Of a stretch of 64,000 bases of DNA, positions 654 to 62,468 are shown in pieces (the stretch's first letter is position 1; every line of letters begins with the position of its first letter). The notes under the pieces were generated by a model, which was not told where the DNA came from, searched no databases, and saw only the letters and a list, made by a program, of their open reading frames with translations. Location of the stretch: assembly GCA_016184125.1 (NCBI GenBank), contig JACPDG010000043.1, positions 15,882-79,881 on the forward strand, in the 5' to 3' direction. Both the position numbers and the translations under genes were made by a program. Source of the stretch: Candidatus Rokuibacteriota bacterium (GTDB lineage: Bacteria; Methylomirabilota; Methylomirabilia; Rokubacteriales; CSP1-6).

Positions 654-1571
654 ATGAACAACCAGATCGCGGTGCAGCTTCCGCCCGCAGGCCGACGAGG
701 CGAGACCCGAACCGCCTCCCTCCGGTACCTCTGGGGGATCGTCGTCCGGGGCGCCGGCGAAGAGGCACGACGTCACTATAGCTCGACCGTGCCGCGCGGC
801 CGCGAGGGGCGCCGCTCGCGCTCCGCCGTTCGTTTTCGCCGCACGCTCGACCGGGTCGGGCGGCTGATTCCTCCCGAGCGCCTGCTCGCCGTGCTCGTTC
901 GCGACGAGACGGCCCTGTTCACGGAGGATCTCCGCATCGTCGGCGCGCAGCGCGTCGTTCAGCCGGCGTGGCGCGGCAGCGCCGCGGAGCTGTTCCTCGC
1001 CACGCTGACGATCGCCCGTGAAGAACCCCACGCGACCGTCGCCCTGCTCCCGTCGGAGCACCTCACGGGGCACGAGGGCACCTTCATGGACTACGTCCGT
1101 CGGGCCGCGAGGGCCGTGGAGATCCGTCCTGACCTCGCCGTCGTGATCGGGGCACCCGCGTGCCGCGGCGGGCGCCCCCCCGCGTGGATCGAGCCCGGTG
1201 CCGCCGTCGAGGGCCTGGAGGGCTCCGCGATCCGATCGGTCGCGCGCTTCGTTCGCGACCCGTCACGCGCGGAGGTGTCGAGGCTGCTCGATGCGGGTGC
1301 GCTGGTCGCGACGCGGGTGATCGTGTCGAAGGTGTCGACGCTGCTGGCGCTCGGGCGCGCGCGCCTGCCGGACGTGCTCGAGACCCTCGAGCCGCTCCAG
1401 GATGCGGGGTCCGGCGCCGAGGAGGACCTCCTGCGCGAGGCCGTCTACGAGTGCATGCCGCGGGCGGACATCACGAGCGCGATTCCGCCGCGCGGTGACG
1501 GCTTCGCGGTCCTGCCGTTCCCGGAATTCCTCGAGCTCGAGGACGGCTCGCGCCTGCCGCTGGCGTCTTAA
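654..1571 (+). CDS. sugar-phosphate nucleotidyltransferase-like protein (degenerate ManC-like paralog)
   Basis: The central and C-terminal parts align with the intact mannose-1-phosphate guanylyltransferase-like gene at 26487-27431 (LLPSEHL...VVIG...WIEPG). The N-terminal G-x-G-x-R nucleotide-binding motif is degraded and low-complexity. Confidence 0.5.
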   Translation: MNNQIAVQLPPAGRRGETRTASLRYLWGIVVRGAGEEARRHYSSTVPRGREGRRSRSAVRFRRTLDRVGRLIPPERLLAVLVRDETALFTEDLRIVGAQRVVQPAWRGSAAELFLATLTIAREEPHATVALLPSEHLTGHEGTFMDYVRRAARAVEIRPDLAVVIGAPACRGGRPPAWIEPGAAVEGLEGSAIRSVARFVRDPSRAEVSRLLDAGALVATRVIVSKVSTLLALGRARLPDVLETLEPLQDAGSGAEEDLLREAVYECMPRADITSAIPPRGDGFAVLPFPEFLELEDGSRLPLAS

Positions 1572-1650
1572 TCAGAATGGGGGCCCCGAAATGGCCCCCA
1601 TACCCCCCGACGCTCGGACACGCCCCGGGAAACCCGGGGCGCGCCTCGAT
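1571..1650 (+). repeat. family A GC-rich dispersed repeat, copy A1
   Basis: ATGGGGGCCCCGAAATGGCCCCCATACCCCCC...CGCTCGG...CCCCGGGAAACCCGGGG...CTCGA; G-run/C-run hairpin plus CCCGGG-GAAA-CCCGGG hairpin. Sits immediately after the stop of the 654-1571 gene. Confidence 0.8.
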
Positions 1651-1681
1651 CCCGGTCGGCGCGAGCCCCGACATGGCGTTT

Positions 1682-2326
1682 CTACTCGGCGGCGGGAATC
1701 AGGAGCGTCGCCTGGGCGCCGGCGCCGGGTGCCGTGAACCGCAGCCGGCCGCCGTGTAACCTCGCGATCCGTTCGGCCGTCACGAGCCCCACGCCCTGAT
1801 GGCCCGGCCGCGCCGAGGGCCGCAGGCGGACGAGCACCTTCGGGTTGGTGCTGCGAAAGCCGGCGCCGTGGTCCCTGACGACGAGGGCGGCCATGCCATC
1901 CGGCTCGCGCTGCGCGCTGACCTCCGGCGGCGGCGTCCCCTGGCCCGCCGCCTGCGTGGCGTCGATGGCGTTCCGGAGCAGCTCGGCGGTGGCGCGCGTG
2001 AGCAGCGTCGGGTCCCCCACGACGTCGGGCCACTCGTCGCGTGCAGCAAGCACGACGTCCGTGAGCCGCGCGTCGGCGACGGCCCGCTCGACCACCGCGC
2101 GCAGGCTCACCCGCAGGCTCTCGCGGCGCTCGATCGCCACGACGTGCATCGCGGCGGCGAGCATCTCCGCCAGCCGCTCGATTTCCTGCTGGATCATGCG
2201 GACGCTCTCGGCCTCGGCAGGCTCACGGACCGCGCGCTTGAGCACCTCGGCGTGCATCGCCAGCGCGTTCAGCGGGCCCCGCAAGTCGTGGAGGATCCGG
2301 TCGAGGTCCTCCGGCAGGCGGGACAT
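1682..2326 (-). CDS. sensor histidine kinase (HisKA plus HATPase only, no sensor or transmembrane domain)
   Basis: MSRLPEDLDRILHDLRGPLNAL (H-box) ...GAGF...GxGLGL-type ATPase motifs; 214 aa. Start ATG overlaps the upstream response-regulator stop (ATGA). Confidence 0.8.
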   Translation of the reverse strand: MSRLPEDLDRILHDLRGPLNALAMHAEVLKRAVREPAEAESVRMIQQEIERLAEMLAAAMHVVAIERRESLRVSLRAVVERAVADARLTDVVLAARDEWPDVVGDPTLLTRATAELLRNAIDATQAAGQGTPPPEVSAQREPDGMAALVVRDHGAGFRSTNPKVLVRLRPSARPGHQGVGLVTAERIARLHGGRLRFTAPGAGAQATLLIPAAE

Positions 2327-3726
2327 CACATGATCCGGGCCGACTTGACCGCCTGGATGCCGTACTTCGCGAGCTTGTTGTAGAGCGTCTTCAGGCTGAT
2401 GCCGAGCAGCTGGGCCGCGCGGCGCTTGTCCTGGTTCGTCTCCTCGAGGGCGCGCAGGATCGCTTCGCGCTCCATCTCGCGGATCGGCACGACGCTGGAG
2501 CGCTGCGGCGCCGGAGCCGGAGTCGCCGCATGCAGCATGGTCTCCGGCAGGTGCTCGGTGTCGATGAGTCCGGAGCCGGACAGCACCACGGCGCGCTGGA
2601 TCACGTTCCGCAGCTCGCGGACGTTGCCGGGCCAGTGGTAGCGCTCGAGCTCGCGCTCGGCCTCCGGCGTGAGGCCCCGCACCTGGCGGTTGTCCTGCCG
2701 GTTGAACTCGTCGATGAAGCTCCGCACCAGCAACGGGATGTCGTCCTTCCGTTCCCGGAGCCCCGGCAGGCGGATCGAGAACACGTTCAGCCGGTAGAAG
2801 AGGTCCTCGCGCAGCTGTCCCGCCGCGATCGCCTCGGTCGGGACGCGATTGGTCGCCGCGACGACCCGAACGTCCACCTGGATCTCGGCCTTGCCGCCGA
2901 CCCGCCGGAACGTCCCCTCCTGGAGCACGCGCAGGAGCTTGGCCTGCGTGTTGGAGTCCATCTCCGCGATCTCGTCGAGGAACAGCGTGCCGCCGTCGGC
3001 GAGCTCGAAGCAGCCGAGCCGGCGCTCCGTCGCGCCGGTGAAGGCGCCACGCTCGTGCCCGAAGAGCTCGCTCTCGATCAGGGTCTCCGGGATCGCGGCG
3101 CAGTTGATCGCCACGAACGGCTTCGCGCGGCGGTTGGACAGCTCGTGGATCGTCCGCGCGACGAGCTCCTTGCCCGTGCCGCTGTCCCCGAAGACCAGGA
3201 CGGGGGCCGTGCTCGTGGCCGCGAGCTCGATCCAGCGGTAGACCTCCTGCATGGTCTTCGACTGGCCGACGAGCTGCCCGAACGTCCCCTTCTGTCGCAG
3301 CTGGTGGCGCAGGAAGCTCACCTCGCGGGACAGCGACTCCTGCTCGATCGACTTCTCGAGCAGCACCTGGAGCCGGGTCGCGTCGACCGGCTTCGTGAGG
3401 TAATCGAACGCGCCGTGACGCATGGCCTCGACGGCCGTCTCCACGGTCGCGTGCCCGGTCACGAGCAGGACGACCGGCGGACGCCCCGTCTCGCGGAGCT
3501 TCTGAAGGAGGGTGAGTCCGTCCATCTCCGGCAGGACGAGGTCGGTCACGACGACGGCAGGATGCTGCGACTCCACGAGGGAGAGCGCTTCCTCGCCGGA
3601 GGACGCCGTTTCGACCTCGTAGCCCCACTGGCCAACCATGCGCGCGAGACCTTCGCGCTCGGCGGGCTCGTCATCGACGACGAGGACCTTGCCACTCTTC
3701 ATCTGGTCGCGTCGTGCCGGACTCAC
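2326..3726 (-). CDS. sigma-54-dependent response regulator (NtrC family: REC, AAA+ and HTH domains)
   Basis: VLVVDDEP receiver, GDSGTGKELVARTIH Walker A, GAFTGA sigma-54 contact motif, C-terminal Fis-type HTH. GTG start in the track; an alternative ATG (MKSGKV) lies 27 nt downstream. Confidence 0.9.
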   Translation of the reverse strand: MSPARRDQMKSGKVLVVDDEPAEREGLARMVGQWGYEVETASSGEEALSLVESQHPAVVVTDLVLPEMDGLTLLQKLRETGRPPVVLLVTGHATVETAVEAMRHGAFDYLTKPVDATRLQVLLEKSIEQESLSREVSFLRHQLRQKGTFGQLVGQSKTMQEVYRWIELAATSTAPVLVFGDSGTGKELVARTIHELSNRRAKPFVAINCAAIPETLIESELFGHERGAFTGATERRLGCFELADGGTLFLDEIAEMDSNTQAKLLRVLQEGTFRRVGGKAEIQVDVRVVAATNRVPTEAIAAGQLREDLFYRLNVFSIRLPGLRERKDDIPLLVRSFIDEFNRQDNRQVRGLTPEAERELERYHWPGNVRELRNVIQRAVVLSGSGLIDTEHLPETMLHAATPAPAPQRSSVVPIREMEREAILRALEETNQDKRRAAQLLGISLKTLYNKLAKYGIQAVKSARIM

Positions 3727-5358: not shown

Positions 5359-5412
5359 GAAACTCGGGGGCTTCGCCCGGGGTGTGGGGGCCGTTTCGGG
5401 GCCCCCACGTCC

Positions 5413-7525: not shown

Positions 7526-10500
7526 TCATCCGAAGTCGTGCGAGCGGACGGCCGGGGCGTTCACGCGGAGCGCGCGGACGCCGTCCGCGCGGATTGAAAT
7601 GACTCCATCCTGCGTTTGTAAGATCCCCTCGACCCAGAGGAACGGCGCGGCCACGAGCGTCAGGCGCTCGCGCGCGAACAGCGGCGGCTGGACGATCACG
7701 TTCGCGAGCCCCGTCTCGTCCTCGAGCGTCAGGAACACGAATCCCTTCGCGGTCCCCGGCCGCTGCCGCACGATGACGCCGCCCGCGATCGCGACGCGAG
7801 CGCCGTCGGCGAGACGGCGGAGATCGATCGCGCGGACCGCGCCGCGGCGGTCGAGCGCGTCCCGCAGCAGCGCGAGCGGGTGACGGCCGAGCGTCACGCC
7901 GGTGCCCGCGTAGTCGGCGGCGAGACGGTCGCGCGCCGCCATCTCCCGGAGCGGATGCGCGCGGGCCTCGCCGGCATCGGCGGGGTCGCGACCGTTCCCG
8001 CGCGCGCTCGCGGCGGTCCCGAACAGCGCGCCGGGCGACGGCACGGCCGCCTCCCACAGCATCGCGCGTCGCGTTCCGCCGAGCGAGGCGAGCGCGCCGA
8101 TCGCCGCGAGCTGCGTGAGCTCGTCGCGGTCGAGCCCGGTCCGGTGTGCGAGATCGTGCACGGAGGTGAACGGCCGCACGCGCCGCGCCGCGACGAGCGC
8201 CTGGCCCGCGCGCTCGCGCAGGCCCTTCACGTAGCGAAGCCCGAGCCGGACGGCGAAGCCGCCGCCGGACGCTTCGAGGGTGCAGCGCCAGTCCGATCGC
8301 GCGACGTCGACGGGCAGGATGCGCTGGCCGTGGCGCTGCGCGTCCTTCACGATCGTCGCCGGGTGGTAGAAGCCCATCGGCTGGTTGTTGAGCAGCGCCG
8401 CGTAGAACGCCGCGGGATGGCGCACCTTGAGGTAGGCGCTGGCGTACGCGAGCAGCGCGAAGCTCGACGCGTGCGCCTCGGGGAACCCGTAGAGCGCGAA
8501 CGACGTGATCGCGTGCACGATCTCGTCGGCGGCCGCGCCCTCGATCCCCTGGCGCGTGAGCCCGGCCCGCAGCTTCGTCTCGATCTCGACCATCCGCCGC
8601 TCGCTGCGCTTGAATCCGAACGCGCGCCGGAGCTCCTCCGCCTCGCTCGCGGTGAACCCGGCCGCGACCATCGCCATGCGGATGAGCTGTTCCTGGAAGA
8701 GCGGCACGCCGAGCGTGCGTTCGAGGATGGGCTGGAGCGAGGGGTGCGCGTACGTGACCGGCTCGCGGCCGCGCCGCCGCCGGATGTAGGGATGCACCAT
8801 GTTGCCGACGATCGGCCCGGGCCGGATGATCGCGACCTGCACGACGAGGTCGTAGAAGCGCTCGGGGTGCACGCGCGGGAGCGTCGCCATCTGCGCGCGG
8901 CTCTCGACCTGGAACACGCCGACCGTGTCCGCGGCCTGGAGACTGCGGTACACCTCCGGGTCGTCGGGCGGCAGGCGCGCCAGATCCACCTCCGCGCCCG
9001 TCTCGCGCACGAGCGCGAGCGCGTCCTGCAGCACGGACATCATGCCGAGCCCGAGCAGGTCGACCTTCACGATGCCGAGCGCGGCGCAGTCGTCCTTGTC
9101 CCACTGGATGACGACGCGGCCCGGCATGGTCGCGGGCTCGAGCGGCACCACGTCGTCGAGCCGCCCCGCGGCGATCACCATCCCGCCGGAGTGCTGGCCG
9201 AGATGACGCGGGAGATCCTGCACGGCGACCCAGAGGGCCGCGAACTTCCGGATGCGCGGATGGCGCGGATCGCAGCCCGCGTCGGCGAGGCGGTGGACGA
9301 GCGATGCACTCGGATCCTGGTAGCCCCAGGTGTCGACGAGCTTCGCGAGCCGGTCCTGGAGCTCCCCGGGGAGCCCGAGCGCCTTGCCGACCTCGCGCGC
9401 GGCGCTCCGACCGCGATACGTGATGACGTTCGCCGTCATGCCGGCGCCGAGACGCCCGTAGCGTCGGTAGACGTACTGGATCACGGCCTCTCGCCGCTCG
9501 CCGCTCGGCAGGTCGAGATCGATGTCCGGCCACTCGCCGCGCGCCTCGGACAGGAACCGCTCGAAGAGGAGATCCATGCCGACGGGATCGACGGCCGTGA
9601 TGCCGAGCGCGTAGCAGACGGCACTGTTGGCCGCCGATCCCCGCCCCTGCACGAGGATGTCGTTCGCGCGGCAGAAGTCGACGACGTCCCGCACGATGAG
9701 GAAGTACCCGGCGAGGTCGAGCCGGCCGATGATCGCGAGCTCGTGCTCGACCTGCCGGCGCGCGCGCGCCGCCAGCGGCCCGTGGCCGTACCGCTCGCGG
9801 ACGCCGCGCTCGACGAGCTCGGAGAGGTGTGCGAGCGGTGTCGAGCCCGGCGGCAGCGGGTAGTCCGGGAAGCGAGAGCCGAGGTCCTTGAGCGTGAACC
9901 CGAGCCGCATCGCGAGCTCCCCGGTCGCGTGGACGGCGTCCGGGAGGTCGGCGAAGATGCGGGTCATGTCCTCGCCGTTCCGCAGCCCGCGCTCCTCGTT
10001 CGCGAGGAGCGCGCGTCCTGCGTGGTCGAGGTCCGTCTTCTCGCGGATGCACGTGAACACGTCGGTCACCGCGCGCCCGGCCGGCCGCGCGTAGAGCGGC
10101 TGGTTGGCGGCGACGAGGCCGACGCCGGCGTCGCGCGCGAGCGTGACGAGGCGCTCGAGGCGCTTCTCCTGCTCGCGGTCGAACTGTCGCTGGACCTCGA
10201 CGAAGCACGAGGAGCGCCCGAAGATGCCGACGAGACGATCGAGCGTGGCGCGCGCGGCGGCGCGGTCGCCGGCCGCGACGGCGCGCGCGAGCGGTCCGTG
10301 CGCGCCGCCGGTGAGACAGACGAGTCCCGACGCGTACGCCTCGACGTCGTCCAGCGTGACGGCCGCCTGCCCCTTCGGCGCGGCGAGCTTGGCGCGCGTC
10401 AGGAGCCGGCACAGGTTCCGGTAGCCCTCCCGGTCCTCGACGAGCAGCGGCAGGCGCGAGCCGTCCGCGAGCGTCACCTCGCTGCCGACGAGCGCCTTGA

Positions 10501-10672
10501 GCCCCGCGTTCGCGGCGGCGCGATAGAACCGCGGCGCGCCGTACACGCCATCACGGTCGACGAGCGCGATCGCCGGCATCTCGAGACGCGCGGCCTCGGC
10601 GACGAGCGTCTCGGGCAGGTCGGCGGCCGCGAGAAACGAGAACGCGGACTGCGCGTGCAGCTCGATGAACAT
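7526..10672 (-). CDS. dnaE2: error-prone DNA polymerase DnaE2 (ImuC)
   Basis: MFIELHAQSAFSFL start, PHP domain and pol III alpha catalytic core; 1048 aa. Confidence 0.95.
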   Translation of the reverse strand: MFIELHAQSAFSFLAAADLPETLVAEAARLEMPAIALVDRDGVYGAPRFYRAAANAGLKALVGSEVTLADGSRLPLLVEDREGYRNLCRLLTRAKLAAPKGQAAVTLDDVEAYASGLVCLTGGAHGPLARAVAAGDRAAARATLDRLVGIFGRSSCFVEVQRQFDREQEKRLERLVTLARDAGVGLVAANQPLYARPAGRAVTDVFTCIREKTDLDHAGRALLANEERGLRNGEDMTRIFADLPDAVHATGELAMRLGFTLKDLGSRFPDYPLPPGSTPLAHLSELVERGVRERYGHGPLAARARRQVEHELAIIGRLDLAGYFLIVRDVVDFCRANDILVQGRGSAANSAVCYALGITAVDPVGMDLLFERFLSEARGEWPDIDLDLPSGERREAVIQYVYRRYGRLGAGMTANVITYRGRSAAREVGKALGLPGELQDRLAKLVDTWGYQDPSASLVHRLADAGCDPRHPRIRKFAALWVAVQDLPRHLGQHSGGMVIAAGRLDDVVPLEPATMPGRVVIQWDKDDCAALGIVKVDLLGLGMMSVLQDALALVRETGAEVDLARLPPDDPEVYRSLQAADTVGVFQVESRAQMATLPRVHPERFYDLVVQVAIIRPGPIVGNMVHPYIRRRRGREPVTYAHPSLQPILERTLGVPLFQEQLIRMAMVAAGFTASEAEELRRAFGFKRSERRMVEIETKLRAGLTRQGIEGAAADEIVHAITSFALYGFPEAHASSFALLAYASAYLKVRHPAAFYAALLNNQPMGFYHPATIVKDAQRHGQRILPVDVARSDWRCTLEASGGGFAVRLGLRYVKGLRERAGQALVAARRVRPFTSVHDLAHRTGLDRDELTQLAAIGALASLGGTRRAMLWEAAVPSPGALFGTAASARGNGRDPADAGEARAHPLREMAARDRLAADYAGTGVTLGRHPLALLRDALDRRGAVRAIDLRRLADGARVAIAGGVIVRQRPGTAKGFVFLTLEDETGLANVIVQPPLFARERLTLVAAPFLWVEGILQTQDGVISIRADGVRALRVNAPAVRSHDFG

Positions 10673-10674
10673 CT

Positions 10675-10752
10675 GATCATGGGGGGACTACCGAAGCCCC
10701 CCATACCCCCCGGCGCTCGGAGCGCCCCGGCCCAGCCGTGGCGCTCCTCGAC
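10675..10752 (+). repeat. family A repeat, copy A2, in the 100-bp gap between imuB and dnaE2
   Basis: TCATGGGGGGACTACCGAAGCCCCCCATACCCCCC...CGCTCGG...CTCCTCGA. Confidence 0.8.
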
Positions 10753-10774
10753 GACACGCTTCGTTCACGGGCCC

Positions 10775-12565
10775 TCAGTCGTACGCTCCGTCGAGATACC
10801 ACTCGCCGGTCATCCGGTCGCGCGCGAGACGGCACAGCATGCCGTCCGCGAGCGCGACGTCCCACTCCTCGCGCGCCCACCCGTTCGTCGTCCACCACTC
10901 GCCCGACGTGCGCCACGGCCCTGCGCTCGCGACGATCGCTTGCGGGCGTGACACACCACCGAGCGCGTCGTGGAACGCCACCTGCACCGGCGCGTCATCC
11001 ACGAGCGTGACGTCGACCCGGCGCGGCGGCCGAACACGCCGGAACGCGAGCGGCATGGTCGGCAGCGACCGCGGCGCGCCCGCATCAGCGTCCGCCCCGG
11101 ACGTCGATGGCACCGTGGCGTCACCGTCGCCGTCCCACACCGGCACCTCGCCGTCGTCGCCGTCCCGCCACGCGTCGTCGTCCGAGAGTTCGAGCAACAA
11201 TCGACCGCCGGGCGGTCGATTGTTGGCTCGAACTGAGTCGGCGACGCGCGGCGGCGCGAACGGCACGAGCGTCACCGGATCGGCGCGATGCGAGTCGAGG
11301 ATCACCGGCGAGCCGACGTTGTCGCGGCCGACGAGCGTCGCGAGCCGGACCAGCGTCTCGGTCAGGTCGCGCAGCGCGGGACCGGGACGTTCGCCGAGCC
11401 TCGCCTGCGCCGCCTCCGCGCGGACGGCGCGCGCGCTCACCGCGACGCGGGTGACCGGCGCCGAGGGTGGACGCGCCTCGAGCTCGAGCGCGACGAGGAC
11501 CAGCATCGGCCGTGGATCGCACGACGGCGACGCGAGCGCCACCGTGCGCACATCGTGGGCGCCGCTCGCGAGCGCGAGCTCGAGCCGCAGCGTGTCGGCC
11601 GACACGTGCCCGGCGGCAAGACGCGCCGTGAGCCGCTCGAGCAGCTGCCGGAGCATCGGCTCGAGCCCGCTCCACGTGTCGACCTCCCAGTCGAGCCCCT
11701 GCGCTTCCTGCCAGAACGGCGGCGGCGACCACGGCCGGAACGCTGTCCGGTCGTGGCCGAGCGCCTCGTCCTGCGCGTCGAGCCCTGCCCGGCCGAGCCG
11801 CGTTCCGAGGCCGTCACGAGGCAGCGCCGCGAGCTCGCCGAGCGTCACGACGCCCCAGCGCGCGAACGTCTCGGCGAGCGGCGGCGCCAGATCGAGGACG
11901 GCGAGCGGCACCGCGCCGAGCGCGTCGCGCTCACATCCAGGCGGGACGACGTGGCAGCGGGACGCGATGGACGTCTCCGCAGGCTCAGGGCCCGTGAACG
12001 CATCCGCGGATCGAGCCGCACGCAAACCCGAGGAGCGCCGCGGGTCCCCCGCGGCGCTTCCGAGCGCGGGGGGTTTGGGGGGCTTCGTTAGTCCCCCCAT
12101 GATGGAGAGTCCGGCGATGCGCGCGGCCGTCCGGGTCCCCGCCACGCCGACGGTCGCGTCGAGCCCGACGCCGCGCGCGGCGCGCACGAGCCGCTCCGCG
12201 ATGCGCCCGTCGTCTCCGAGCAATCGCGCGAGCCCGGCGAGGTCGACGGAGACGATCCCTGGCCCGCCGTCTTCCACGCGTGGCGACACCCCGAGCGCGG
12301 CTTCGAGCAGCGCGTGCTGCGCGAGCGTGGCGCGCTCGTCGGACACGGCGCGGACCGCGAGCGCGACGCAGCGGGCGCGTGCTTCGGTCTCCGTCATCCC
12401 CGGCACGACACCCGCGGCGCGAGCAGCATCGCTCGCCTCGACGATGCGCCGCGCGGGCGGCGTCCCCGTCACCACCGCCAGGGGTCGATCCCGCAGGTCC
12501 GGCTCGCACCGCGCGTGCGCGGCCGCGGCGAAGTGGTCGACGAGCAGGCAGCCGAAGCGGTTCAT
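10775..12565 (-). CDS. imuB: ImuB (Y-family polymerase-like mutasome subunit), carrying two in-frame repeat-derived insertions
   Basis: MNRFGCLLVDHFAAAA...UmuC-like N-terminal domain. ATGA overlap with the imuA stop. The ORF remains open through a family A copy (12039-12103) and a family B palindrome (11186-11236). Confidence 0.8.
   Translation of the reverse strand: MNRFGCLLVDHFAAAAHARCEPDLRDRPLAVVTGTPPARRIVEASDAARAAGVVPGMTETEARARCVALAVRAVSDERATLAQHALLEAALGVSPRVEDGGPGIVSVDLAGLARLLGDDGRIAERLVRAARGVGLDATVGVAGTRTAARIAGLSIMGGLTKPPKPPALGSAAGDPRRSSGLRAARSADAFTGPEPAETSIASRCHVVPPGCERDALGAVPLAVLDLAPPLAETFARWGVVTLGELAALPRDGLGTRLGRAGLDAQDEALGHDRTAFRPWSPPPFWQEAQGLDWEVDTWSGLEPMLRQLLERLTARLAAGHVSADTLRLELALASGAHDVRTVALASPSCDPRPMLVLVALELEARPPSAPVTRVAVSARAVRAEAAQARLGERPGPALRDLTETLVRLATLVGRDNVGSPVILDSHRADPVTLVPFAPPRVADSVRANNRPPGGRLLLELSDDDAWRDGDDGEVPVWDGDGDATVPSTSGADADAGAPRSLPTMPLAFRRVRPPRRVDVTLVDDAPVQVAFHDALGGVSRPQAIVASAGPWRTSGEWWTTNGWAREEWDVALADGMLCRLARDRMTGEWYLDGAYD
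11186..11236. repeat. family B 50-bp palindrome, copy B1, inside imuB
   Basis: GAGTTCGAGCAACAATCGACCGCC-GG-GCGGTCGATTGTTGGCTCGAACT; encodes ...ANNRPPGGRLLLE... in frame. Confidence 0.8.
12039..12103 (-). repeat. family A repeat, copy A3 (reverse orientation), inside imuB
   Basis: Reverse complement reads CCATCATGGGGGGACTAACGAAGCCCCCCAAACCCCCCGCGCTCGGAAGCGCC; encodes ...SIMGGLTKPPKPPALGSAAG... in frame. Confidence 0.75.
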
Positions 12566-13146
12566 GCGCTGAACCGCGCGGCTCCGGGCCACGCGCGGGC
12601 ACGCGGATGGCGTGCCGCGTGCGGCCGCAGGAGGTGCAGCCGCGTGCGCATGGCGGCGAGTCGCGTCGCTCGCGTCCCCGGCCCGGTCCACTCGAGCGCG
12701 TCCTGCACGGTCTCGATCACGAGCGCGGCGCCGGAGCCGGCGACATGACGGCGGCCGAGCAGGACCAGGGCTGCGCGCGTGCGTCGCACCGCGAGCTTGA
12801 GCCGGAACGCGGTCTCGAGCGAGAGCCGCGGCGGCACGTCTCCCGTGTCGAGCGCGACGAGCGCGAACCCGGGGCGACGGACGAGCACGTCGGTCGCGCG
12901 CAGCGCGACCGACCGGCGTCCGGCGCACCGCACCCACAGCAGGCGCCGGAGGTCGACGCCCGCACGCGCGGCCGCGGCGGGATCGAACGCCTCGTCGGTG
13001 TCGACGAGCCCCGCCACGCCGCCGTTCGCGGTGGCGCGCGCAAGCCACGCGAACAGGAGACTCGTGCGGCCGGAGGAGAGCCGGCCGACGATCTCGGTGA
13101 TCTCCGAGAGAGGCGGAAACTCGGGATACATCGCATTTACCTGCAC
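12562..13146 (-). CDS. imuA: ImuA (RecA-fold SOS mutasome component)
   Basis: GRLSSGRTSLLFAWLARATANGGVAGLVDTDEAFDP is a RecA/SulA-like P-loop-degenerate core. Sits upstream of imuB-dnaE2. Confidence 0.8.
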   Translation of the reverse strand: MQVNAMYPEFPPLSEITEIVGRLSSGRTSLLFAWLARATANGGVAGLVDTDEAFDPAAAARAGVDLRRLLWVRCAGRRSVALRATDVLVRRPGFALVALDTGDVPPRLSLETAFRLKLAVRRTRAALVLLGRRHVAGSGAALVIETVQDALEWTGPGTRATRLAAMRTRLHLLRPHAARHPRARAWPGAARFSA

Positions 13147-17398: not shown

Positions 17399-17407
17399 GC
17401 GTCCATA

Positions 17408-17487
17408 GAAGTGGGGGGCCCCGAAATGGCCCCCCACACCCCCCCGCGCTCGGAAGCGGCCCGGGAAACCCGGGCCGCTCCTCGACG
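17408..17487 (+). repeat. family A repeat, copy A4
   Basis: GTGGGGGGCCCCGAAATGGCCCCCCACACCCCCCCGCGCTCGGAAGCGGCCCGGGAAACCCGGGCCGCTCCTCGAC. Confidence 0.85.
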
Positions 17488-17489
17488 TC

Positions 17490-17570
17490 CCGCTCGGCTC
17501 GGGTGCCGACATCCCCCGCGCGGAAGCGGCCCGGGCACGGCTCGGGTGCCGACATCCCCCGCGCGGGCGT
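17490..17570 (+). repeat. tandem direct repeat (2 x ~44 bp) GCTCGGGTGCCGACATCCCCCGCGCGG
   Basis: Two near-identical units at 17496-17522 and 17540-17566, immediately following A4. Confidence 0.7.
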
Positions 17571-19205: not shown

Positions 19206-19418
19206 GGCCGGTGGTTGAGAGGATACCCGTCGCTCGCCGCCTTCGCGAGCCCACGCGAATGGGGAAAATGTTTTCCTCCTGCCGTGGGCTACAATCGCCG
19301 CTCGAGGTCGTGGTTGCGGCGCCGCGGAGAACCGAGGAGCGGCCCCGGGTTTCGCGGGTGCGTCCGCGCACCACGGGTGCGTCCGCGCACCCCCCCCGGG
19401 CCGCTTCCGAGCCGATCA

Positions 19419-19433
19419 CATGACGGCGTCATG
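19419..19433. promoter_or_regulatory. perfect 15-bp palindrome CATGACG-G-CGTCATG in the divergent promoter region
   Basis: Seen directly in the sequence; candidate operator. Confidence 0.3.
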
Positions 19434-19446
19434 AGGCTGCCGTCCA

Positions 19447-19473
19447 GAAACTGGTCACAGAATGACCAGTTTC
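19447..19473. promoter_or_regulatory. perfect palindrome GAAACTGGTCA-cagaa-TGACCAGTTTC (11-bp arms); candidate repressor operator upstream of the SDR gene
   Basis: Lies in a locally AT-richer stretch ~70 bp upstream of the ATG at 19541, between divergent genes. Confidence 0.4.
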
Positions 19474-19483
19474 CTAGGAGCGT

Positions 19484-20308: not shown

Positions 20309-20370
20309 CTTCCCCGGAGGGGGCTGCGCCCCCCGTCCGGAACTCAGAGAGTCAGTGAACGAATCCGGTC

Positions 20371-44379: not shown

Positions 44380-44402
44380 CCTCCTGCTCTCGTCAGCTTC
44401 TC

Positions 44403-44450
44403 AGTTCGAGCAACCATCGACCGCCGCGGCGGTCGATGGTTGCTCGAGTT
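44403..44450. repeat. family B palindrome, copy B3
   Basis: TTCGAGCAACCATCGACCGCC-GCG-GCGGTCGATGGTTGCTCGAG, with a compensatory CC-GG pair. Lies between the response-regulator stop and the msrP start. Confidence 0.75.
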
Positions 44451-44451
44451 C

Positions 44452-45129
44452 TCACACGGCGAAACGGTAGCCCTGCGCGTGGACCGTCTGGATCCACACG
44501 GGATGATCGGGATCGGTCTCGAGCTTCTTCCGGAGCCTGAGCACGTGCGTGTCGACCGTCCGGGTCGTCGGGAACCGCTCGTACCCCCACACCTCGTCGA
44601 GCAGGCGCTCGCGCGTCAGCACGTCGCCACGGTGCTCGACGAGGTGGACGAGGAGATCGAATTCCTTGCGCGTCATCGCGAGCTCGCGTCCCGCCTTGAA
44701 CACGCGGCGAGCGCGCCGGTGGATCCGCACGTCGCCGAACTCCAGGTCCTGCGACTTCTCGCGCGGACCCGGCCGGCGCAGGACGGCGCGCACCCGCGCC
44801 AGCAGCTCCCGCAGGGAGAACGGCTTCGTGACGTAGTCATCGGCGCCGAGCTCGAGGCCCAGCACCCGGTCCATCTCCTCGCCGCGCGCCGAGAGCATGA
44901 TGACGGGCACCTCGATGCCCTTCTTCCTGAGCTCCCGGCACACGTCCCAGCCGCTCATGACGGGCATCATGATGTCGAGGACGACGAGATCCGGCGCCGC
45001 GCTCGCCGCGAGCGCCAGGGCGTCGGCGCCGTTCGTCGCGGTCAGTGTCTCGTATCCCTCGAAGCGCAGATTGTCCTCGAGGCCCCGCACGATCTCCGGC
45101 TCGTCGTCGACGATGAGGATGCGTGGCAT
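44452..45129 (-). CDS. OmpR-family response regulator
   Basis: MPRILIVDDEPEIV...winged-helix C-terminus (YRFAV). Confidence 0.9.
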   Translation of the reverse strand: MPRILIVDDEPEIVRGLEDNLRFEGYETLTATNGADALALAASAAPDLVVLDIMMPVMSGWDVCRELRKKGIEVPVIMLSARGEEMDRVLGLELGADDYVTKPFSLRELLARVRAVLRRPGPREKSQDLEFGDVRIHRRARRVFKAGRELAMTRKEFDLLVHLVEHRGDVLTRERLLDEVWGYERFPTTRTVDTHVLRLRKKLETDPDHPVWIQTVHAQGYRFAV

Positions 45130-51145: not shown

Positions 51146-52378
51146 TCATCGCGCGGCGACGACGCGAGCCGGCCGATCGCTCGGCAACGTCCACGCGCAC
51201 GCCGTCGCGGCCGCGCCGCCCAGCCCGAGCGTCATGAACGCCCAGCCCCACAGGGTCCTCACGCCGCCGGGGTTGGTGAGGTCGAGCACCGCGCCGAACA
51301 CGAGCGGAGCGACGGCGCCCGCGCCGAACCCGAGCAGCGACCGGAGCGCGAGGCCGGACCCGAGATACGCGGGAGTCACCACCTCCGTGAAGGCCGTCGA
51401 CAGCACCGGCGAGTCGCCGAGGGCGGCAAAGCCGTACACGGCGCCGACGGCGAAGATCACGGCTGCAGGCGCGCCGATGAGCCAGCCGAACGTGAACGAG
51501 CAGACGGTGGCGATCGCCGCGAGGCCGAGCAGCACCGCTCGCCGTCCGAGCCGATCCGAGAGCGCGCCCATCGACGACGACGCGATCAGGCCCATCAGGT
51601 GGAACGTCGCGCTCAGGTACGAGCCGAGCTCGACGGCGCGTCCCGAGCCGTGGCCGCCGACGGCGAGCGACGCGGCGACGAACGTCGGCGTCCAGGCCCA
51701 CATCCCGAGCAGCTCCCACGAATGGAACGTGTACCCGCCCATGAGCCGCCTCGCCTGCGGGTTGCCGAGCACCGCCGACCCGAAGTGGAGCCCCGTGCCG
51801 CGCCGATGCACGACCGTGGGCGTGTCGCGAAGGGCGAACCAGGACAGGCCGAGCGCGATCACGGGGCCGGCGCTCGTGGCCGCGAACGCGAGCGGATACC
51901 CGCCGAGTCGGAGGGCGACGCCGGACAGCAGGAGCGACAGCGCATAGCCGAGGGACGAGGCGGCGATGAGCCACCCCACGGCGGTGCCCCGGCGCGCCGG
52001 AGGATACCGGTCCGCGAAGAGCATGATCGCGGTGGTGTAGGTGCCGCCCTGCGACACCGCCACGAACGTGTAGAGCACGAGGCCCGTCAGGTACGAGCGC
52101 GCGAACGCCGCGAACGCGACAGCTGCGAGGGCGCTGAGCACCGCGGACCACATGAACACCCGCCGCGCACCGAGGCGGTCGGCGAGCCACGAGAAGACCA
52201 TGAGCGAGACGGCGTACCCGGCCTGGAACGCCGTGGAGATCGAGCCGGCCGCCGTGCCGGTGAGGTGCCACGCGTCGAGCAGGACCGGCAGCGCCGCGGC
52301 GTACGTCATGAAGACGGACGTCCCGAACGTGCGGGACGCGCAGATCGACACGAGCCAGCGATCGCGCGTCGCGATCAC
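51146..52378 (-). CDS. MFS transporter
   Basis: 12 predicted TM segments with MFS signatures (SWLADRLGARRV, SDRLGRRAV). GTG start with GTGA overlap onto the upstream gene. Confidence 0.8.
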   Translation of the reverse strand: MIATRDRWLVSICASRTFGTSVFMTYAAALPVLLDAWHLTGTAAGSISTAFQAGYAVSLMVFSWLADRLGARRVFMWSAVLSALAAVAFAAFARSYLTGLVLYTFVAVSQGGTYTTAIMLFADRYPPARRGTAVGWLIAASSLGYALSLLLSGVALRLGGYPLAFAATSAGPVIALGLSWFALRDTPTVVHRRGTGLHFGSAVLGNPQARRLMGGYTFHSWELLGMWAWTPTFVAASLAVGGHGSGRAVELGSYLSATFHLMGLIASSSMGALSDRLGRRAVLLGLAAIATVCSFTFGWLIGAPAAVIFAVGAVYGFAALGDSPVLSTAFTEVVTPAYLGSGLALRSLLGFGAGAVAPLVFGAVLDLTNPGGVRTLWGWAFMTLGLGGAAATACAWTLPSDRPARVVAAR

Positions 52379-52659
52379 GGTCGCCGGAACGCACGCGCGG
52401 CGTACTCCATGAACCGGTCCTCGAGCTCGCTCGCGACCGCGTCCGCCACCTCCGCGGCCGGCCCGGGACGCTCCGCCGGCGTCGTGCGGCCCCACGCCGC
52501 CAGGTACTCCTCGGAATCCGCGAGCCCGAGCTGCATCGCGACGGAGTCGATCAACGCCTGCCACCGCTCCGAGAGCGGCCGGGTGCTCGTCTCGTGGTCG
52601 TCGCGCGCCTCGACGACGGCGGGGATCTCACGCCAGGTGATGATCTCGTAGGTCGCCAT
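52375..52659 (-). CDS. hypothetical protein (94 aa)
   Basis: MATYEIITWREIPAVVEARDD...; no family recognised; coupled to the MFS gene. Confidence 0.45.
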   Translation of the reverse strand: MATYEIITWREIPAVVEARDDHETSTRPLSERWQALIDSVAMQLGLADSEEYLAAWGRTTPAERPGPAAEVADAVASELEDRFMEYAARAFRRP

Positions 52660-52664
52660 CTCAA

Positions 52665-52741
52665 ATCATGGGGGGACTATCGAGGCCCCCCAAGCCCCCC
52701 ACGCTCGGCGGCGGCCCGGGGAACCCGGGCCGCCCCTCGGG
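52665..52741 (+). repeat. family A repeat, copy A14
   Basis: ATCATGGGGGGACTATCGAGGCCCCCCAAGCCCCCCACGCTCGGCGGCGGCCCGGGGAACCCGGGCCGCCCCTCGGGAA. Confidence 0.85.
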
Positions 52742-52767
52742 AATCCGATGCGCTCACAGGCTCTCCG

Positions 52768-52792
52768 ATCATGGGGGGACCATCGTTCACGG
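52768..52792 (+). repeat. family A repeat, truncated copy A15 (head only)
   Basis: ATCATGGGGGGACCATCGTTCACGG. Confidence 0.5.
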
Positions 52793-52798: not shown

Positions 52799-54469
52799 TC
52801 AAAAGAGGCCCACGATCTTGCCGCCGGCGTCGATGTCGATGCCCTCCGCCGCCGGCGCCTTCGGGAGGCCGGGCAACGTCAGGATGTCGCCGGCGTACGC
52901 GACGACGAAGCCGGCGCCGGCCGCAAGCTTGGCGTCGCGGACGATCACGCGGAACCCCCGGGGCCGTCCAAGCTTCTTGGGATCGTCCGACAGCGAGTGC
53001 TGCGTCTTCGCCATGCAGACCGGCAGCCGCCCGAAGCCGGCGGCCTCGTACTGCTGGAACCGGGCCGCAGCCGCCGGCAGCACCTCGATCCCGTCGGCGC
53101 CGTAGAGCGTCCGCGCGATCGTCTCGGCCTTCTCTCGGAGCGTCAGCTCGTCGGGGTAGAGGTGACGGAACTTGCCGTTGCCGCCGAGCGCGTCGAGGAC
53201 CGCGCGGGCGACGTCGACGCCGCCGTCGCCGCCTCGTTCCCACACTCGCGAGACCCGCGCGTCGGCGCCGAGGTCCGCGCACGCACCGAGGACCGCCTCG
53301 ACCTCGGGCGCGGTATCACCGGTGAACTCGTTGAGGGCGACCACCGCCGGCACGCCGAAGCTGCGGACGTTGTCGACGTGCGCCTCGAGGTTCGCGAGCC
53401 CGCGCCGTACGGCCGCGACGTCCGGCGTGCCGAGCCGCTCGCGCGGCACCCCGCCGTGCATCTTCAGCGCGCGCACCGTCGCCACGATGACGGCGGCCGA
53501 CGGGACGAGCCCGCCCGCGCGGCACTTGATGTCGAAGAACTTCTCGGCCCCGAGGTCGCTGCCGAAGCCGGCCTCGGTCACCGCGACCTCGCCCAGCTTG
53601 AGCGCCAGGCGCGTGGCGACCAGGCTCGAGCAGCCGTGCGCGATGTTGCCGAACGGACCGCCGTGGACGAACGCCGGCGTCCCCTCGAGCGTCTGGACGA
53701 GGTTCGGCTTCACCGCATCCTTGAGCAACACCGCGAGCGCGCCGGCGGCGCGCAGCTCGCCGGCGGTGACGAACGCGCCGGCCGGTGTCTCGCCGACCAC
53801 GACGCGTGCCAGCCGTGCCTTGAGATCCTCGAGGTCGCACGCGAGACAGAGGATCGCCATGACCTCGGACGCGGCGGTGATCTCGAACCCCCCCTCGCGC
53901 GGCACGCCGTGCCCCGGGCCGCCGAGGCCCAGCACCACGTGCCGGAGCGCCCGGTCGTTCATGTCGAGCACGCGCTGCCACGCGATCCGACGTGCGTCGA
54001 GTCCGAGCCGGTTGCCGTGGAACAGGTGGTTGTCGACCAGCGCCGCGAGCAGGTTGTGCGCCGCGGTGACGGCGTGCAGGTCGCCGGTGAAGTGGAGGTT
54101 GATGTCCTCCATCGGCACGACTTGCGCGTAGCCGCCTCCGGCGGCGCCGCCCTTCACGCCGAAGCACGGCCCCAGCGACGGCTCGCGCAGCGCCACCACC
54201 GCGCGCTTGCCGAGGCGGCGGAACGCGTCGCCCAGCCCGACCGTCGTCGTCGACTTGCCCTCGCCGGCCGGCGTCGGCGTCATCGCGGTCACGAGCACGA
54301 GCGTGCCATCGGGGCGGTCGGCCACCCGATCGAGGACGTCGAGCGGCACCTTCGCCTTGGACCGTCCGTACGGCTCGATGTCGTCGGCCGCGAGGCCGAG
54401 CCGACCGGCGATCGCCGCGATCGGCTCCAGGCGCGCGTCACGCGCGATGTCGAGGTCGGTCCTGCCCAT
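52799..54469 (-). CDS. fhs: formate--tetrahydrofolate ligase
   Basis: ...TPAGEGKSTTTVGL P-loop...; 556 aa, full-length match to the FTHFS architecture. Confidence 0.95.
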   Translation of the reverse strand: MGRTDLDIARDARLEPIAAIAGRLGLAADDIEPYGRSKAKVPLDVLDRVADRPDGTLVLVTAMTPTPAGEGKSTTTVGLGDAFRRLGKRAVVALREPSLGPCFGVKGGAAGGGYAQVVPMEDINLHFTGDLHAVTAAHNLLAALVDNHLFHGNRLGLDARRIAWQRVLDMNDRALRHVVLGLGGPGHGVPREGGFEITAASEVMAILCLACDLEDLKARLARVVVGETPAGAFVTAGELRAAGALAVLLKDAVKPNLVQTLEGTPAFVHGGPFGNIAHGCSSLVATRLALKLGEVAVTEAGFGSDLGAEKFFDIKCRAGGLVPSAAVIVATVRALKMHGGVPRERLGTPDVAAVRRGLANLEAHVDNVRSFGVPAVVALNEFTGDTAPEVEAVLGACADLGADARVSRVWERGGDGGVDVARAVLDALGGNGKFRHLYPDELTLREKAETIARTLYGADGIEVLPAAAARFQQYEAAGFGRLPVCMAKTQHSLSDDPKKLGRPRGFRVIVRDAKLAAGAGFVVAYAGDILTLPGLPKAPAAEGIDIDAGGKIVGLF

Positions 54470-61620: not shown

Positions 61621-62244
61621 CTACGGGGCCTTCCACAGCATCCGTCCATCCCGGCCGGTGAGCGCGAACAGCGGCAGCCCGAACGCACGCACGGCCATGG
61701 TCGCCCGGGCGCGGCCGTCGGCGTCCATGAGCCCGAACGCCGCGAAGTCCGAGGCGTCGATGCCCAGCGTGCCTCGCACCTTCTCGTTCTTGTCGTAGAC
61801 GGCGACGGCGGGCGAGCCGTCCGCGGCGAGCTCGAGCCGCACGCGGGCCTTCCCCGCGCGGTCCGCGAGCTCGAGGCGCGGCACACCGCCGGCGTCCAGC
61901 GCGAGGTGCGCACGCACCGTCTCGTCGCGGTCGTAGAGCTTGAGGTCCGGCGCGCCCTCCGCGCTGAGCGCCAGCCACGCACGGATCTTCCCTCGCGTGT
62001 CGGCGAGCGCGAGCCCCGGCCGGTCGTCACTCCCGAGGGAGAGCGCGGCGCGCGCGCGTCCCGCACCGTCGCGCACGATGAAGGTCTCGGCCTCGACCGT
62101 GCGGGGCGGCGGCGCGGCTTGCCCGAGCACGCCGAGCGCCGCGACGAGGGTCCCCGCGGCGAGCGTCCAGACCTTCCACCGGCGGTGCGCGCGCTCGAGC
62201 CGCTCGAGCCGTTCGCTCAGCGCTTCCGTTGCTGAATCGGCCAT
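61621..62244 (-). CDS. hypothetical membrane-anchored protein with internal degenerate repeats
   Basis: MADSATEALSERLERLERAHRRWKVWTLAAGTLVAALGVL TM, then ~4 repeats of the (A/L)xLxLxDxxGKxRxxL type. Confidence 0.45.
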   Translation of the reverse strand: MADSATEALSERLERLERAHRRWKVWTLAAGTLVAALGVLGQAAPPPRTVEAETFIVRDGAGRARAALSLGSDDRPGLALADTRGKIRAWLALSAEGAPDLKLYDRDETVRAHLALDAGGVPRLELADRAGKARVRLELAADGSPAVAVYDKNEKVRGTLGIDASDFAAFGLMDADGRARATMAVRAFGLPLFALTGRDGRMLWKAP

Positions 62245-62302
62245 GCCGCCCTCCCAGTCGATGCGACTCGCGCCCACCATACACGAGGCGCGACCGACCG
62301 AT

Positions 62303-62380
62303 ATCATGGGGGGCCCCGAGATGGCCCCCCATACCCCCCACCGCTCGGAACGGCCCCGGCGCAGCCGCGGCCGTCCTCGG
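62303..62380 (+). repeat. family A repeat, copy A16
   Basis: ATCATGGGGGGCCCCGAGATGGCCCCCCATACCCCCCACCGCTCGGAACGGCCCCGGCGCAGCCGCGGCCGTCCTCGGGAA. Confidence 0.85.
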
Positions 62381-62395
62381 GAACGCGCTGCGTGC

Positions 62396-62468
62396 TCGGA
62401 GCCCCGACATGGCCCCCCATACCCCCCACCGCTCGCCGGGCCCGGGGTCAACCCGGGCCCGCCTCGAC
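62396..62468 (+). repeat. family A repeat, copy A17 (tandem with A16; lacks the CATGGGGGG head)
   Basis: GGAGCCCCGACATGGCCCCCCATACCCCCCACCGCTCGCCGGGCCCGGGGTCAACCCGGGCCCGCCTCGAC. Confidence 0.8.

Follow-up and report, generated by a model that had tools for sequence, protein, structure and literature searches.

A structured, probably REP-like family of miniature repeats at gene boundaries in Candidatus Rokubacteria

What kind of element is a short, GC-rich sequence that recurs every few kilobases between unrelated genes of an uncultured bacterium, and how did it reach those positions? The question is raised by a 64 kb stretch of a Candidatus Rokuibacteriota genome (contig JACPDG010000043.1, positions 15,882 to 79,881; hereafter the window), in which an earlier note described a dispersed repeat with at least 17 copies, here called family A. 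The repeat family in the window is real. The window has 69–74% G+C throughout and a GC skew that is negative all along; the signature GGGGGG-N7-11-CCCCCC occurs in it 11 times, against 0.07 expected from shuffles. A repeat search recovered family A in direct (D1, D2, D5, D6, D7) and inverted (I2–I14) pairs. A profile hidden Markov model built from 7 copies gave 15 matches at E ≤ 1e-6, and an unfiltered covariance model (CM) returned the same 15 (E < 0.01) together with two remnants, 5364-5410(−) and 19325-19528(−). Units are described in the orientation of the earlier note, with the G-run side as 5′. The census of 15 solid copies and 2 remnants agrees with the count first proposed, and 11 copies on the + strand and 6 on the − strand bear out the statement that both orientations occur.

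Family A is probably a set of lineage-specific, non-autonomous, REP/BIME-like miniature elements of Candidatus Rokubacteria (Rokuibacteriota/Methylomirabilota). The earlier description, a structured dispersed family of REP/BIME- or MITE-like character, is supported by covariation, REP-like placement and the comparison of filled with empty sites. Each unit runs through an A/T-rich leader, hairpin 1, an unpaired C6-GCGCTCGG linker, hairpin 2, CCTCGA and a tail. Leader positions −11 to −4 are ~40–80% A+T (mean ~60%) against a background of ~30%, and the leader ends R-S-A-T (T in 96%, A in 76%). Hairpin 1 is an invariant G6:C6 stem, usually lengthened by CC/GG and an (A/G)T...A(T/C) foot. It is followed by a spacer of 2–3 nucleotides (nt), a second C6 run and a near-invariant RCGCTCGG, of which C6 and RCGCTCGG are unpaired. 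Hairpin 2, previously read as CCCGGG with a GNRA-like loop, has instead a stem of 11–13 bp and a loop of the AAA, GAA or GGAA type. The extra palindrome GGGTGCGCGGACGCACCC, correctly noticed in some copies, is a nested hairpin within the hairpin 2 loop of three window copies; one window copy carries an extra hairpin. The tail (15–35 nt) is lineage-specific, ending ...TTCACGGGCTCTSAG in the window genome and in loci L032 and L060, and TACTCCGACACGCTCCT-like in many other metagenome-assembled genomes (MAGs). Core copies measure 73–77 nt, with a mean column identity of 83% over 60 copies. The length of ~80 bp assigned to the unit at first is too short, as the 3′ tail brings it to ~105–120 nt in the window genome. 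Units stand singly, in head-to-tail arrays of 2–4, or as separate modules consisting of hairpin 2 only. Tandem pairs were retained at 29304-29485, 39325-39494 and 62304-62467, while 52665-52792, first listed as a pair, holds one complete unit and a truncated stub.

Folding prediction gives the two hairpins on either strand. Segments of ~95–133 nt reach −52 to −74 kcal/mol; folding z-scores range from −1.4 to −4.8, and six of eight folds score −2.7 or lower. Structural covariation, on which the earlier note had let its structural claim depend, was found. In a MAFFT alignment of 60 copies, trimmed by hand and taken from the window and from at least 25 MAGs, 6 of the 11 pairs of hairpin 2 are changed on both sides, amounting to 61 both-side-changed cells against 22 in shuffles, and none of 500 shuffles reaches 61. 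In 110 model-aligned copies, whose alignment was fitted to the covariance model and is hence biased toward structure, 88.6% of cells are paired, 12 of 22 pairs are changed on both sides, and 145 both-side-changed cells compare with 45 in shuffles (0/500) and 7–25 in slid controls; the independent MAFFT alignment agrees for hairpin 2. Hairpin 1 is too invariant for covariation, its foot excepted (G-C versus A-U, columns 3/33). Given the MAFFT alignment, RNAalifold joined the G-run to the second C-run; covariation at columns 3/33 favors the first C-run, and the alternative pairing is possible as a minor conformer.

The stems also depart from perfect pairing in a patterned way. Columns 62/99 of hairpin 2 (alignment A3) hold a non-standard pair in 44 of 110 copies, apparently a conserved C·T mismatch. 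There are 49 A·C mismatches against 7 G·T, and the excess is the same in copies sense and antisense to neighboring genes. Since this asymmetry is the same in both gene orientations, it is a property of the family A element, of its active strand or master copies, and local mRNA-level selection is excluded as its source.

Comparison of filled and empty sites bears on how the units came to their positions. The RNase D/CoA-binding junction holds a unit only in the window and is empty in nearly all of ~75 spanning syntenic metagenome loci, where it reads TGA-GAAGGTGAAGCTCC-ATG or similar, ~15–25 nt long, with a Shine-Dalgarno (SD) sequence. At the CoA-binding/ettA junction, 1–4 units stand in L087, L089, L092, L103/L125 and L134; the junction is short, with a normal SD, in L069, L090, L138 and L077/L075, and in the window, too, a family A unit is absent there. 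The 3′ end of ettA carries a unit in the window and in L090 and is empty in ~40 loci. EttA ends ...YKRLG* in the window and ...YKRL* in L090, as opposed to ...YKRLPR(A/S/G)* in most (>30) empty orthologs, so insertion appears to replace the last codons and to supply the stop; in L067, the closest empty relative, insertion just after TGAT is also compatible. The imuB and dnaE2 genes of L146, the closest relative, overlap at GAC-TGATG-TTC (GACTGATGTTC), and in the window the same bases are parted by a 102-nt unit. The SDR and 233-aa genes, which flank another window unit, abut or overlap in several related loci.

Units have also entered reading frames. ImuB of the window has 596 aa against ~490–530 aa in homologs, owing to two repeat-derived in-frame insertions, and is 100% identical to a 'DNA polymerase Y family protein' that NCBI lists for a Candidatus Rokubacteria bacterium. 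One insertion is a unit-derived segment of ~45 aa, whose central ~32–37 residues are missing from all seven aligned homologs; the closest of these, P0002, retains a short related stretch at the segment's C-terminal end. The other is a copy, at 11183, of a second repeat (family B, described below), in frame in the linker. In L146, a histidine-kinase open reading frame (ORF) runs on through a unit at 17462-17539, which makes up its final ~28 codons, with the stop right after CCTCGA (CCT CGA TGA). The view that copies are almost always intergenic holds for the 16 of 17 window copies outside ORFs and fails for the copy at 12028-12102, in frame inside imuB. Together, these comparisons indicate that units were gained at gene boundaries that are tight in relatives, can multiply locally into arrays or single modules, and persist across the lineage.

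Placement relative to genes is strongly non-uniform. With genes taken from a codon-usage gene caller, and a Pfam check where it mattered, units occupy 23 of 62 convergent intergenic regions (37%), 46 of 401 co-directional regions (11%) and 4 of 58 divergent regions (7%; chi-square p = 1e-7). Copies in co-directional regions are antisense in 41 cases and sense in 15. The flanking genes are functionally unrelated (DNA polymerases, EttA, RNase D, SDR, selenoprotein, CoA-transferase, glycine-zipper protein), which rules out a riboswitch or gene-specific leader. Where a same-strand gene ends at the G-run side, gene calls put its stop exactly 6 nt ahead of the G-run in 15 of 38 cases; a stop triplet stands at this offset in 18 of the 38, and in 28 the stop lies 3–7 nt ahead of the G-run, with TGA, TAG and TAA alike. 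Copies not facing a gene end keep no stop at that offset. The reported abutment on stop codons is thereby upheld, including at ettA (TGA 21199-21201, 6 nt from the G-run) and at the glycine-zipper gene (stop at 39495). Where an opposite-strand gene starts at the G-run side, the start codon lies 4–9 nt past the unit without a Shine-Dalgarno sequence in 13 of 24 cases, among them dnaE2 and p233 in the window and ettA in five lineages. In empty sites, the genes otherwise SD-less after units have an SD or a coupled overlap.

Family A is a feature of one lineage and occurs phylum-wide in Rokubacteria. A DNA pattern describing the unit was scanned against one genome per species and matched at least 65 loci; 62 of the 65 matches listed are true members by profile search. 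These come nearly all from Candidatus Rokubacteria/Rokuibacteriota/Methylomirabilota MAGs from many sites, a few being labeled 'Binatia' or 'uncultured bacterium'. The other 3 of the 65, in Desulfovibrio, Acidobacteria and Polyangiaceae, failed the profile search and are chance matches. In a density sample of 670 kb of related Rokubacteria metagenome contigs, picked only for an RNase D ortholog (61–68% identity), 13 copies in 8 loci correspond to ~1 per 52 kb, against 1 per 4 kb in the window; either the window genome is strongly enriched or short-read contigs break at units, and 2 of the 13 copies lie at or near contig ends. The hundreds to thousands of copies per genome projected in the earlier note are an extrapolation from the window, where units are far denser than in this sample. 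The earlier note did not recognize the repeat as a described family, and our searches agree. Rfam gave 0 matches at the gathering score and at E ≤ 1 a single unrelated match, which rules out a known RNA family. No match to family A was found in a plasmid collection, and a full-text literature search with diagnostic unit strings and with Rokubacteria repeats returned nothing relevant. The founding Rokubacteria paper does not mention repeats (PMC5712423). Family A is previously undescribed, within the known class of REP-like non-autonomous repeats, and is not categorically new.

The members in the window are as follows, with CM scores in bits.

1568-1649, + strand: unit 1 (core 1574-1649; 83.9 bits), between convergent genes 654-1571(+) and 1682-2329(−); the TAA of the + gene ends 7 nt before the G-run.
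5364-5410, − strand: remnant, hairpin 1 alone (GGGGGCCCCGAAACGGCCCCC plus ACACCCC; 22.6 bits, E 0.039; partial nhmmer match).
10673-10778, + strand: unit 3 (core 10677-10751 plus tail TTCACGGGCCCTCAG; 68.1 bits), occupying the entire imuB-dnaE2 spacer, antisense to both; the imuB stop TGA lies within the tail end, and the dnaE2 ATG (10672) lies 4 nt past the unit's reverse-complement end, without SD.
11984-12105, − strand: unit 4 (core 12028-12102 plus tail; 77.7 bits), in frame within the imuB ORF 10775-12565(−), translated as ...LSIMGGLTKPPKPPALGSAAGDPRRSSGLRAARSADAFTGPEPAET...
17406-17498, + strand: unit 5 (core 17409-17485; 91.1 bits, the window's highest), in a convergent region upstream of the 3′ end of 17613-19205(−).
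19325-19530, − strand: disrupted unit 6 (23.7 bits; partial nhmmer matches), with hairpin 1, C6 and ACGCTC at 19478-19528 and hairpin 2 at 19325-19400 with a nested GGGTGCGC..GCACCC palindrome. Between the parts, at 19400-19478(−), stand ~80 nt that are A/T-richer and hold an operator-like palindrome, GAAACTGGTCA-N5-TGACCAGTTTC (N5 = TTCTG). Divergent genes, 17613-19205(−) and the SDR gene 19541-20308(+), flank the unit, whose reverse-complement end adjoins the SD and ATG (19541) of the SDR gene.
20343-20468, − strand: unit 7 (core 20371-20466 plus tail; 36.8-51 bits), with a nested palindrome lengthening hairpin 2; antisense to the SDR gene, which stops before it, and to the 233-aa gene, which starts after it (both +), with GAGTTC direct repeats on its flanks.
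21116-21199, − strand: unit 8 (core 21123-21196; 82.5 bits), directly after the ettA stop.
23990-24080, + strand: unit 9 (core 23991-24067; 87.7 bits), antisense; the CoA-binding gene starts on one side of it, at 23979, and RNase D stops on the other, at 24079 (both −).
29303-29409, + strand: unit 10 (core 29304-29377 plus tail; 69 bits), first in a tandem pair; past its reverse-complement end stands the AAGGAGG-N5-ATG of a UGSC selenoprotein gene.
29410-29485, + strand: unit 11 (74.6 bits), second of the pair; its CTCGA end adjoins the TAA stop (29486) of a CoA-transferase gene (−; Pfam CoA_transf_3).
39322-39428, + strand: unit 12 (core 39325-39400 plus tail; 61.8 bits); the TGA of 39085-39321(+) ends 7 nt before the G-run.
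39429-39494, + strand: unit 13 (45.4 bits), without the second C-run; its CCTCGA end adjoins the stop of the glycine-zipper gene 39495-39710(−) (Pfam Gly-zipper).
42537-42703, − strand: unit 14 (CM 30.1 + 19.2 bits; nhmmer 24.4 bits), a long variant with an extra hairpin (GGGGGCTGACGCCCCC) and a nested palindrome in hairpin 2; CTGAG stands on either flank, and the unit adjoins the family B palindrome 42702-42761.
52662-52786, + strand: unit 15 (core 52666-52740 plus tail; 75.7 bits), followed by a truncated second unit with a G6 stub at 52767-52786; antisense, between the start of 52375-52659(−) and the stop of 52799-54469(−).
62301-62392, + strand: unit 16 (core 62304-62380; 75.7 bits), first in a tandem pair, upstream of 61621-62280(−).
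62393-62494, + strand: unit 17 (core 62393-62467, degenerate 5′ G-run, tail TTCACGGGGGATCAG; 43.5 bits).

If family A consists of REP-like miniature elements, a host-encoded enzyme probably copies the units in trans, recognizing the imperfect hairpins on one DNA strand, and the obvious candidate would be an HUH/Y1 transposase of the RAYT or IS200/IS605 type. The imperfect hairpins, the unpaired motif, the strand asymmetry, the orientation bias and an end adjacent to a YTRR motif fit single-strand mobilization by HUH/Y1 enzymes, without proving it. YTRR is enriched, in degenerate form, at −10 to −7 (C/T at −10, T at −9, R at −8/−7), and CTAG/CTGA-type motifs recur at both borders of units. Once inserted, the units would be co-transcribed with their neighbors and would set two very stable hairpins at 3′ ends and at junctions between cistrons. 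There, if REP/BIME is a guide, they could block 3′ exonucleases, attenuate read-through, or modulate termination or initiation of adjacent translation.

Several points weigh against this reading. The RAYT or IS200/IS605-type partner that the earlier note suggested did not appear in the 1.2 Mb examined: tblastn with RAYT/IS200 queries, a weak test, found none in 0.53 Mb, and a scan for the HUH..Y..NP motif found none in 1.2 Mb, a small sample for a usually single-copy gene. Terminal inverted repeats are absent, the 5′ end (RSAT-G6CC) not being complementary to the 3′ end (CCTCGA plus tail). Evidence for target-site duplication falls short of significance; the 4-mer at −10 to −7 is shared with the 3′ flank in 9 cases against 6.1 expected (p = 0.14), and single copies have convincing-looking direct repeats of 5–6 bp (TTAGTT in L037, GAGTTC at window 20343-20468, CTAGG in L011). 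With an identity of just 60–93% to the reference copy, the window copies do not demonstrate recent transposition. Proteins of the filled and empty genomes are only ~60–70% identical, and the exact borders of insertions, as well as gain rather than loss, follow from parsimony. Derived characters common to all five ettA-upstream copies (CGAAC, G5) make it probable that these go back to a single old insertion. Finally, the RNA effects of the units are ones that we infer from the REP/BIME analogy.

The closest known systems are REP/BIME and REPIN-RAYT (PMC3116915, PMC3337134). Like REP/BIME, family A consists of short GC-rich imperfect palindromes in high copy number, mostly extragenic, located after 3′ ends and within operons and rare in divergent regions; both orientations, arrays and module mosaics are shared, as is a lineage-specific sequence conserved over the long term across related genomes. 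Enterobacterial and pseudomonad REPs carry a conserved GTAG-like tetranucleotide at the 5′ foot of the palindrome, whereas the foot of family A is R-S-A-T, without GTAG. The G-run/C-run architecture, which had been called unusual, is less so than it seemed, given that a G5-6/C5-6 palindromic core, GGGGGCTTGCCCCC, is known from the GI REP of Pseudomonas fluorescens (PMC3337134). A REPIN is two REPs inverted to form one long hairpin (PMC3337134); in family A, by contrast, hairpins 1 and 2 are unrelated, each folds on itself, and they stand in series about a conserved unpaired linker, with arrays running head-to-tail. A RAYT gene (HUH/Y1 transposase) is typically single-copy and flanked by repeats (PMC3337134), and none was found for family A in the 1.2 Mb examined. 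Family A further differs from REPs in its uncultured, non-proteobacterial host and in the fixed 6-nt register of its stops.

Could the unit instead be a host cis-acting RNA element, that is, a U-tract-independent terminator, a 3′-end stabilizer or an intercistronic processing site, selected locus by locus and spread by duplication or recombination? We consider this possible, if on the unlikely side. It would account for the strong enrichment at 3′ ends and between convergent genes, for hairpins that are very stable on either strand with pairing preserved by covariation, for a core conserved over many MAGs (83% mean column identity, 60 copies), and for a hairpin that starts 3–7 nt past stop codons. 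Liang, Rudd and Deutscher reportedly found in 2015 that E. coli REP hairpins just past stop codons affect translation termination. However, intrinsic terminators are GC-rich hairpins followed by a U-tract, and family A hairpins have no U-tract after them in either orientation: no T-run follows CCTCGA, or C6 on the other strand. None of the 9 units within 10–30 kb of the window was called terminator-like and no promoter-like sites were seen at units there, so a canonical terminator or sigma-70 promoter was rejected. Units also lie in both orientations inside operons, one even inside an ORF, and the wobble asymmetry is independent of transcription direction. The unpaired C6-GCGCTCGG and the conserved stem mismatch resemble features for protein recognition rather than thermodynamic ones, and insertion into once-overlapping gene pairs is hard to square with selection locus by locus. 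An RNA role and a REP-like mobile origin are nonetheless compatible; mobile repeats are commonly domesticated.

Family A may possibly be IS200/IS605-PATE-like, which leads to a second alternative. According to this, the unit is a PATE-type IS200/IS605 derivative with hairpin 1 as its left end and hairpin 2 as its right end, moved as single-stranded DNA 3′ of a short target without duplication. The likeness, a resemblance only, lies in subterminal imperfect hairpins at both ends, the absence of terminal inverted repeats and of a clear or significant target duplication, a 5′ end at a fixed distance from the short, A/T-containing YTRR motif, and strand-asymmetric mismatches. The gene-orientation bias of 41 versus 15, and the 11 of 17 window units on the same, C-rich strand, would be expected if one strand were used on the lagging-strand template, but the present data cannot part gene orientation from replication direction. 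No cognate full-length insertion sequence, whether a tnpA/tnpB element with these ends or TnpA, was found in 1.2 Mb. The 'target' is degenerate, with TGA, TAG and TAA all found and the following bases variable, and hairpins 1 and 2 differ from each other and are unrelated in sequence, whereas left- and right-end hairpins of one insertion sequence are usually alike. We hold this alternative to be unlikely.

Other miniature repeats share single traits with family A. Mycobacterial interspersed repetitive units (MIRU; Supply et al. 1997, as summarized in PMC12548453) measure ~50–100 bp and stand singly or in tandem in operons of a high-GC genome; they have one orientation and an internal ORF that overlaps the flanking genes at both of its ends (−4 coupling). 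Exact insertion at gene boundaries of a high-GC genome, with neighbors that keep working, is common to both (PMC12548453). Family A differs from MIRU in having both orientations (41 antisense, 15 sense), in being strongly hairpin-forming, and in lacking a general coupling ORF; an ORF consistently ending at the downstream start codon was sought and is not general, so MIRU-like coupling was set aside. Rickettsia palindromic elements (RPE) are palindromic repeats in frame inside protein genes, and they are translated. Family A resembles them where it lies in frame in ImuB and in the C-terminus of the L146 histidine kinase, but most of its copies are intergenic, insertion into ORFs is exceptional, and the sequences are unrelated. 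Bacterial MITEs with terminal inverted repeats (Correia/NEMIS, RUP, ERIC) are ~100 nt long, dispersed, intergenic and co-transcribed, and can alter the expression of neighbors. Family A is likewise ~100 nt, dispersed and intergenic; it lacks terminal inverted repeats and significant target duplication and forms two local hairpins, not one from end to end.

It is very improbable that the units are independent small-RNA genes or small-peptide genes (the MGGP.../MGGL... ORFs). An ATG or GTG does stand ahead of the G-run in most copies, and some units are translated when inside ORFs. Yet the (A/G)T before the G-run pairs with the A(T/C) after the C-run (columns 3/33 and 4/32) and is a stem extension, not part of a start codon. 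Copy lengths (73–77 nt) differ by non-multiples of three, and on these two grounds a peptide-coding unit is excluded; substitutions, moreover, are compensatory for pairing rather than synonymous, and no promoter-like sites were found at the units within 10–30 kb. An assembly or binning artefact, or chance low-complexity GC-rich sequence, is effectively refuted: MAG assemblies can collapse or chimerize repeats and three of the 65 pattern matches listed were chance, but the same unit stands between conserved syntenic genes in dozens of independently assembled MAGs and contigs, short- and long-read, in counts far above the shuffled expectation.

Within the preferred reading of REP-like miniature elements, what stands out most is how precisely units sit at codons and how they seem to have taken the place of translation signals. 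The regularities in question are the stop-codon register and the SD-less starts. In the ettA-upstream copies, the unpaired G-run upstream of hairpin 1 is now SD-like (GAAGGAGGGGGG, UAAGGGGG); for the SD-less starts, an SD bridged by the hairpin, or SD-independent initiation via the A/U-rich leader, is speculation from sequence. A bolder proposal, which we regard as distinctly doubtful, makes the unit a 'gene-boundary cassette', mobile, adapted to land exactly on stop and start codons, and carrying its own translation signals. On the forward strand, the A/T-rich leader would put a stop codon 6 nt ahead of hairpin 1, and at the ettA 3′ end the three final native codons would have been exchanged. 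Read in reverse, the displaced SD would give way to a purine/G-run (in the ettA copies GAAGGAGGGGGG or UAAGGGGG) followed by hairpin 1 and 6–9 A/U-rich nt. Overlapping, translationally coupled genes such as imuB-dnaE2 could then be split without being killed. If stop register and SD-less starts are truly element-borne, family A would illustrate clearly how a mobile element can be engineered for operon junctions.

A related repeat built like family A, 'family C', occurs at other junctions in 13 loci (L067, L072, L077, L080, L090, L127 and 7 more) and is not in the window. Its sequence runs TAG-CTCGGA-GGGGGGCTTCGCCCCCC, ~45 nt, CCTCCCCCCAGGA, then GGATTGCGCCGGCAAAGCCGGCGCTCGAA. The stop codon likewise lies 6 nt before its G-run, and one of its sites is the junction of the SDR and 233-aa genes.

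Rokubacteria, which are uncultured, abound in soil; their genomes are unusually large, with 8–17% non-coding DNA (PMC5712423). Families A and C make up part of that non-coding DNA. Family A is a practical lineage marker and a likely source of contig breaks and of spurious 'MGGP...' ORFs, and it alters annotated proteins through changed ends and in-frame insertions (ImuB, EttA, histidine kinase). With it, REP-like elements reach a lineage far removed from the Proteobacteria, where they are understood, and its insertions are natural experiments in which a hairpin cassette of ~100 nt is tolerated between stop and start codons.

Further observations concern the units' surroundings. CCTCGA is often followed by T and then A/G, and one frame often stops there. 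Family B is a near-perfect palindrome of 55–60 nt (CTCAGTTCGAGCGACAATCGACCGCC..GGCGGTCGATTGTCGCTCGAACTGAG) with four copies in the window, at 11183-11242, 42702-42761, 44399-44458 and 62578-62637, against none in 1.2 Mb of other Rokubacteria. Two long-hairpin elements of ~130–160 nt, mutually inverted, lie at 36168-36326 and 36693-36821; their arms of 35–50 nt are 90–100% complementary, their loops measure 59 nt, and they flank ~370 nt between a CHASE2-cyclase gene and 36832-37674(−). This pair may be another miniature element family.

Among the genes next to units, window 7526-13131(−) is an imuA-imuB-dnaE2 mutagenesis cassette. A lower-GC island of ~0.6 kb at 23018-23520, with two small overlapping ORFs of toxin-antitoxin-like character, separates the CoA-binding gene from ettA; in about a dozen inspected syntenic loci the two genes are adjacent or parted only by family A units. 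The UGSC-family selenoprotein gene, at 27619-29291(−), has an in-frame TGA at 28999-29001 in the motif ...GTTAD-U-GSCTSW...; of the two adjacent ORFs that this TGA joins, one matches the N-terminal and the other the C-terminal half of Pfam PF24696. A GC-rich hairpin just past the selenoprotein TGA is a candidate selenocysteine insertion sequence (SECIS) element.

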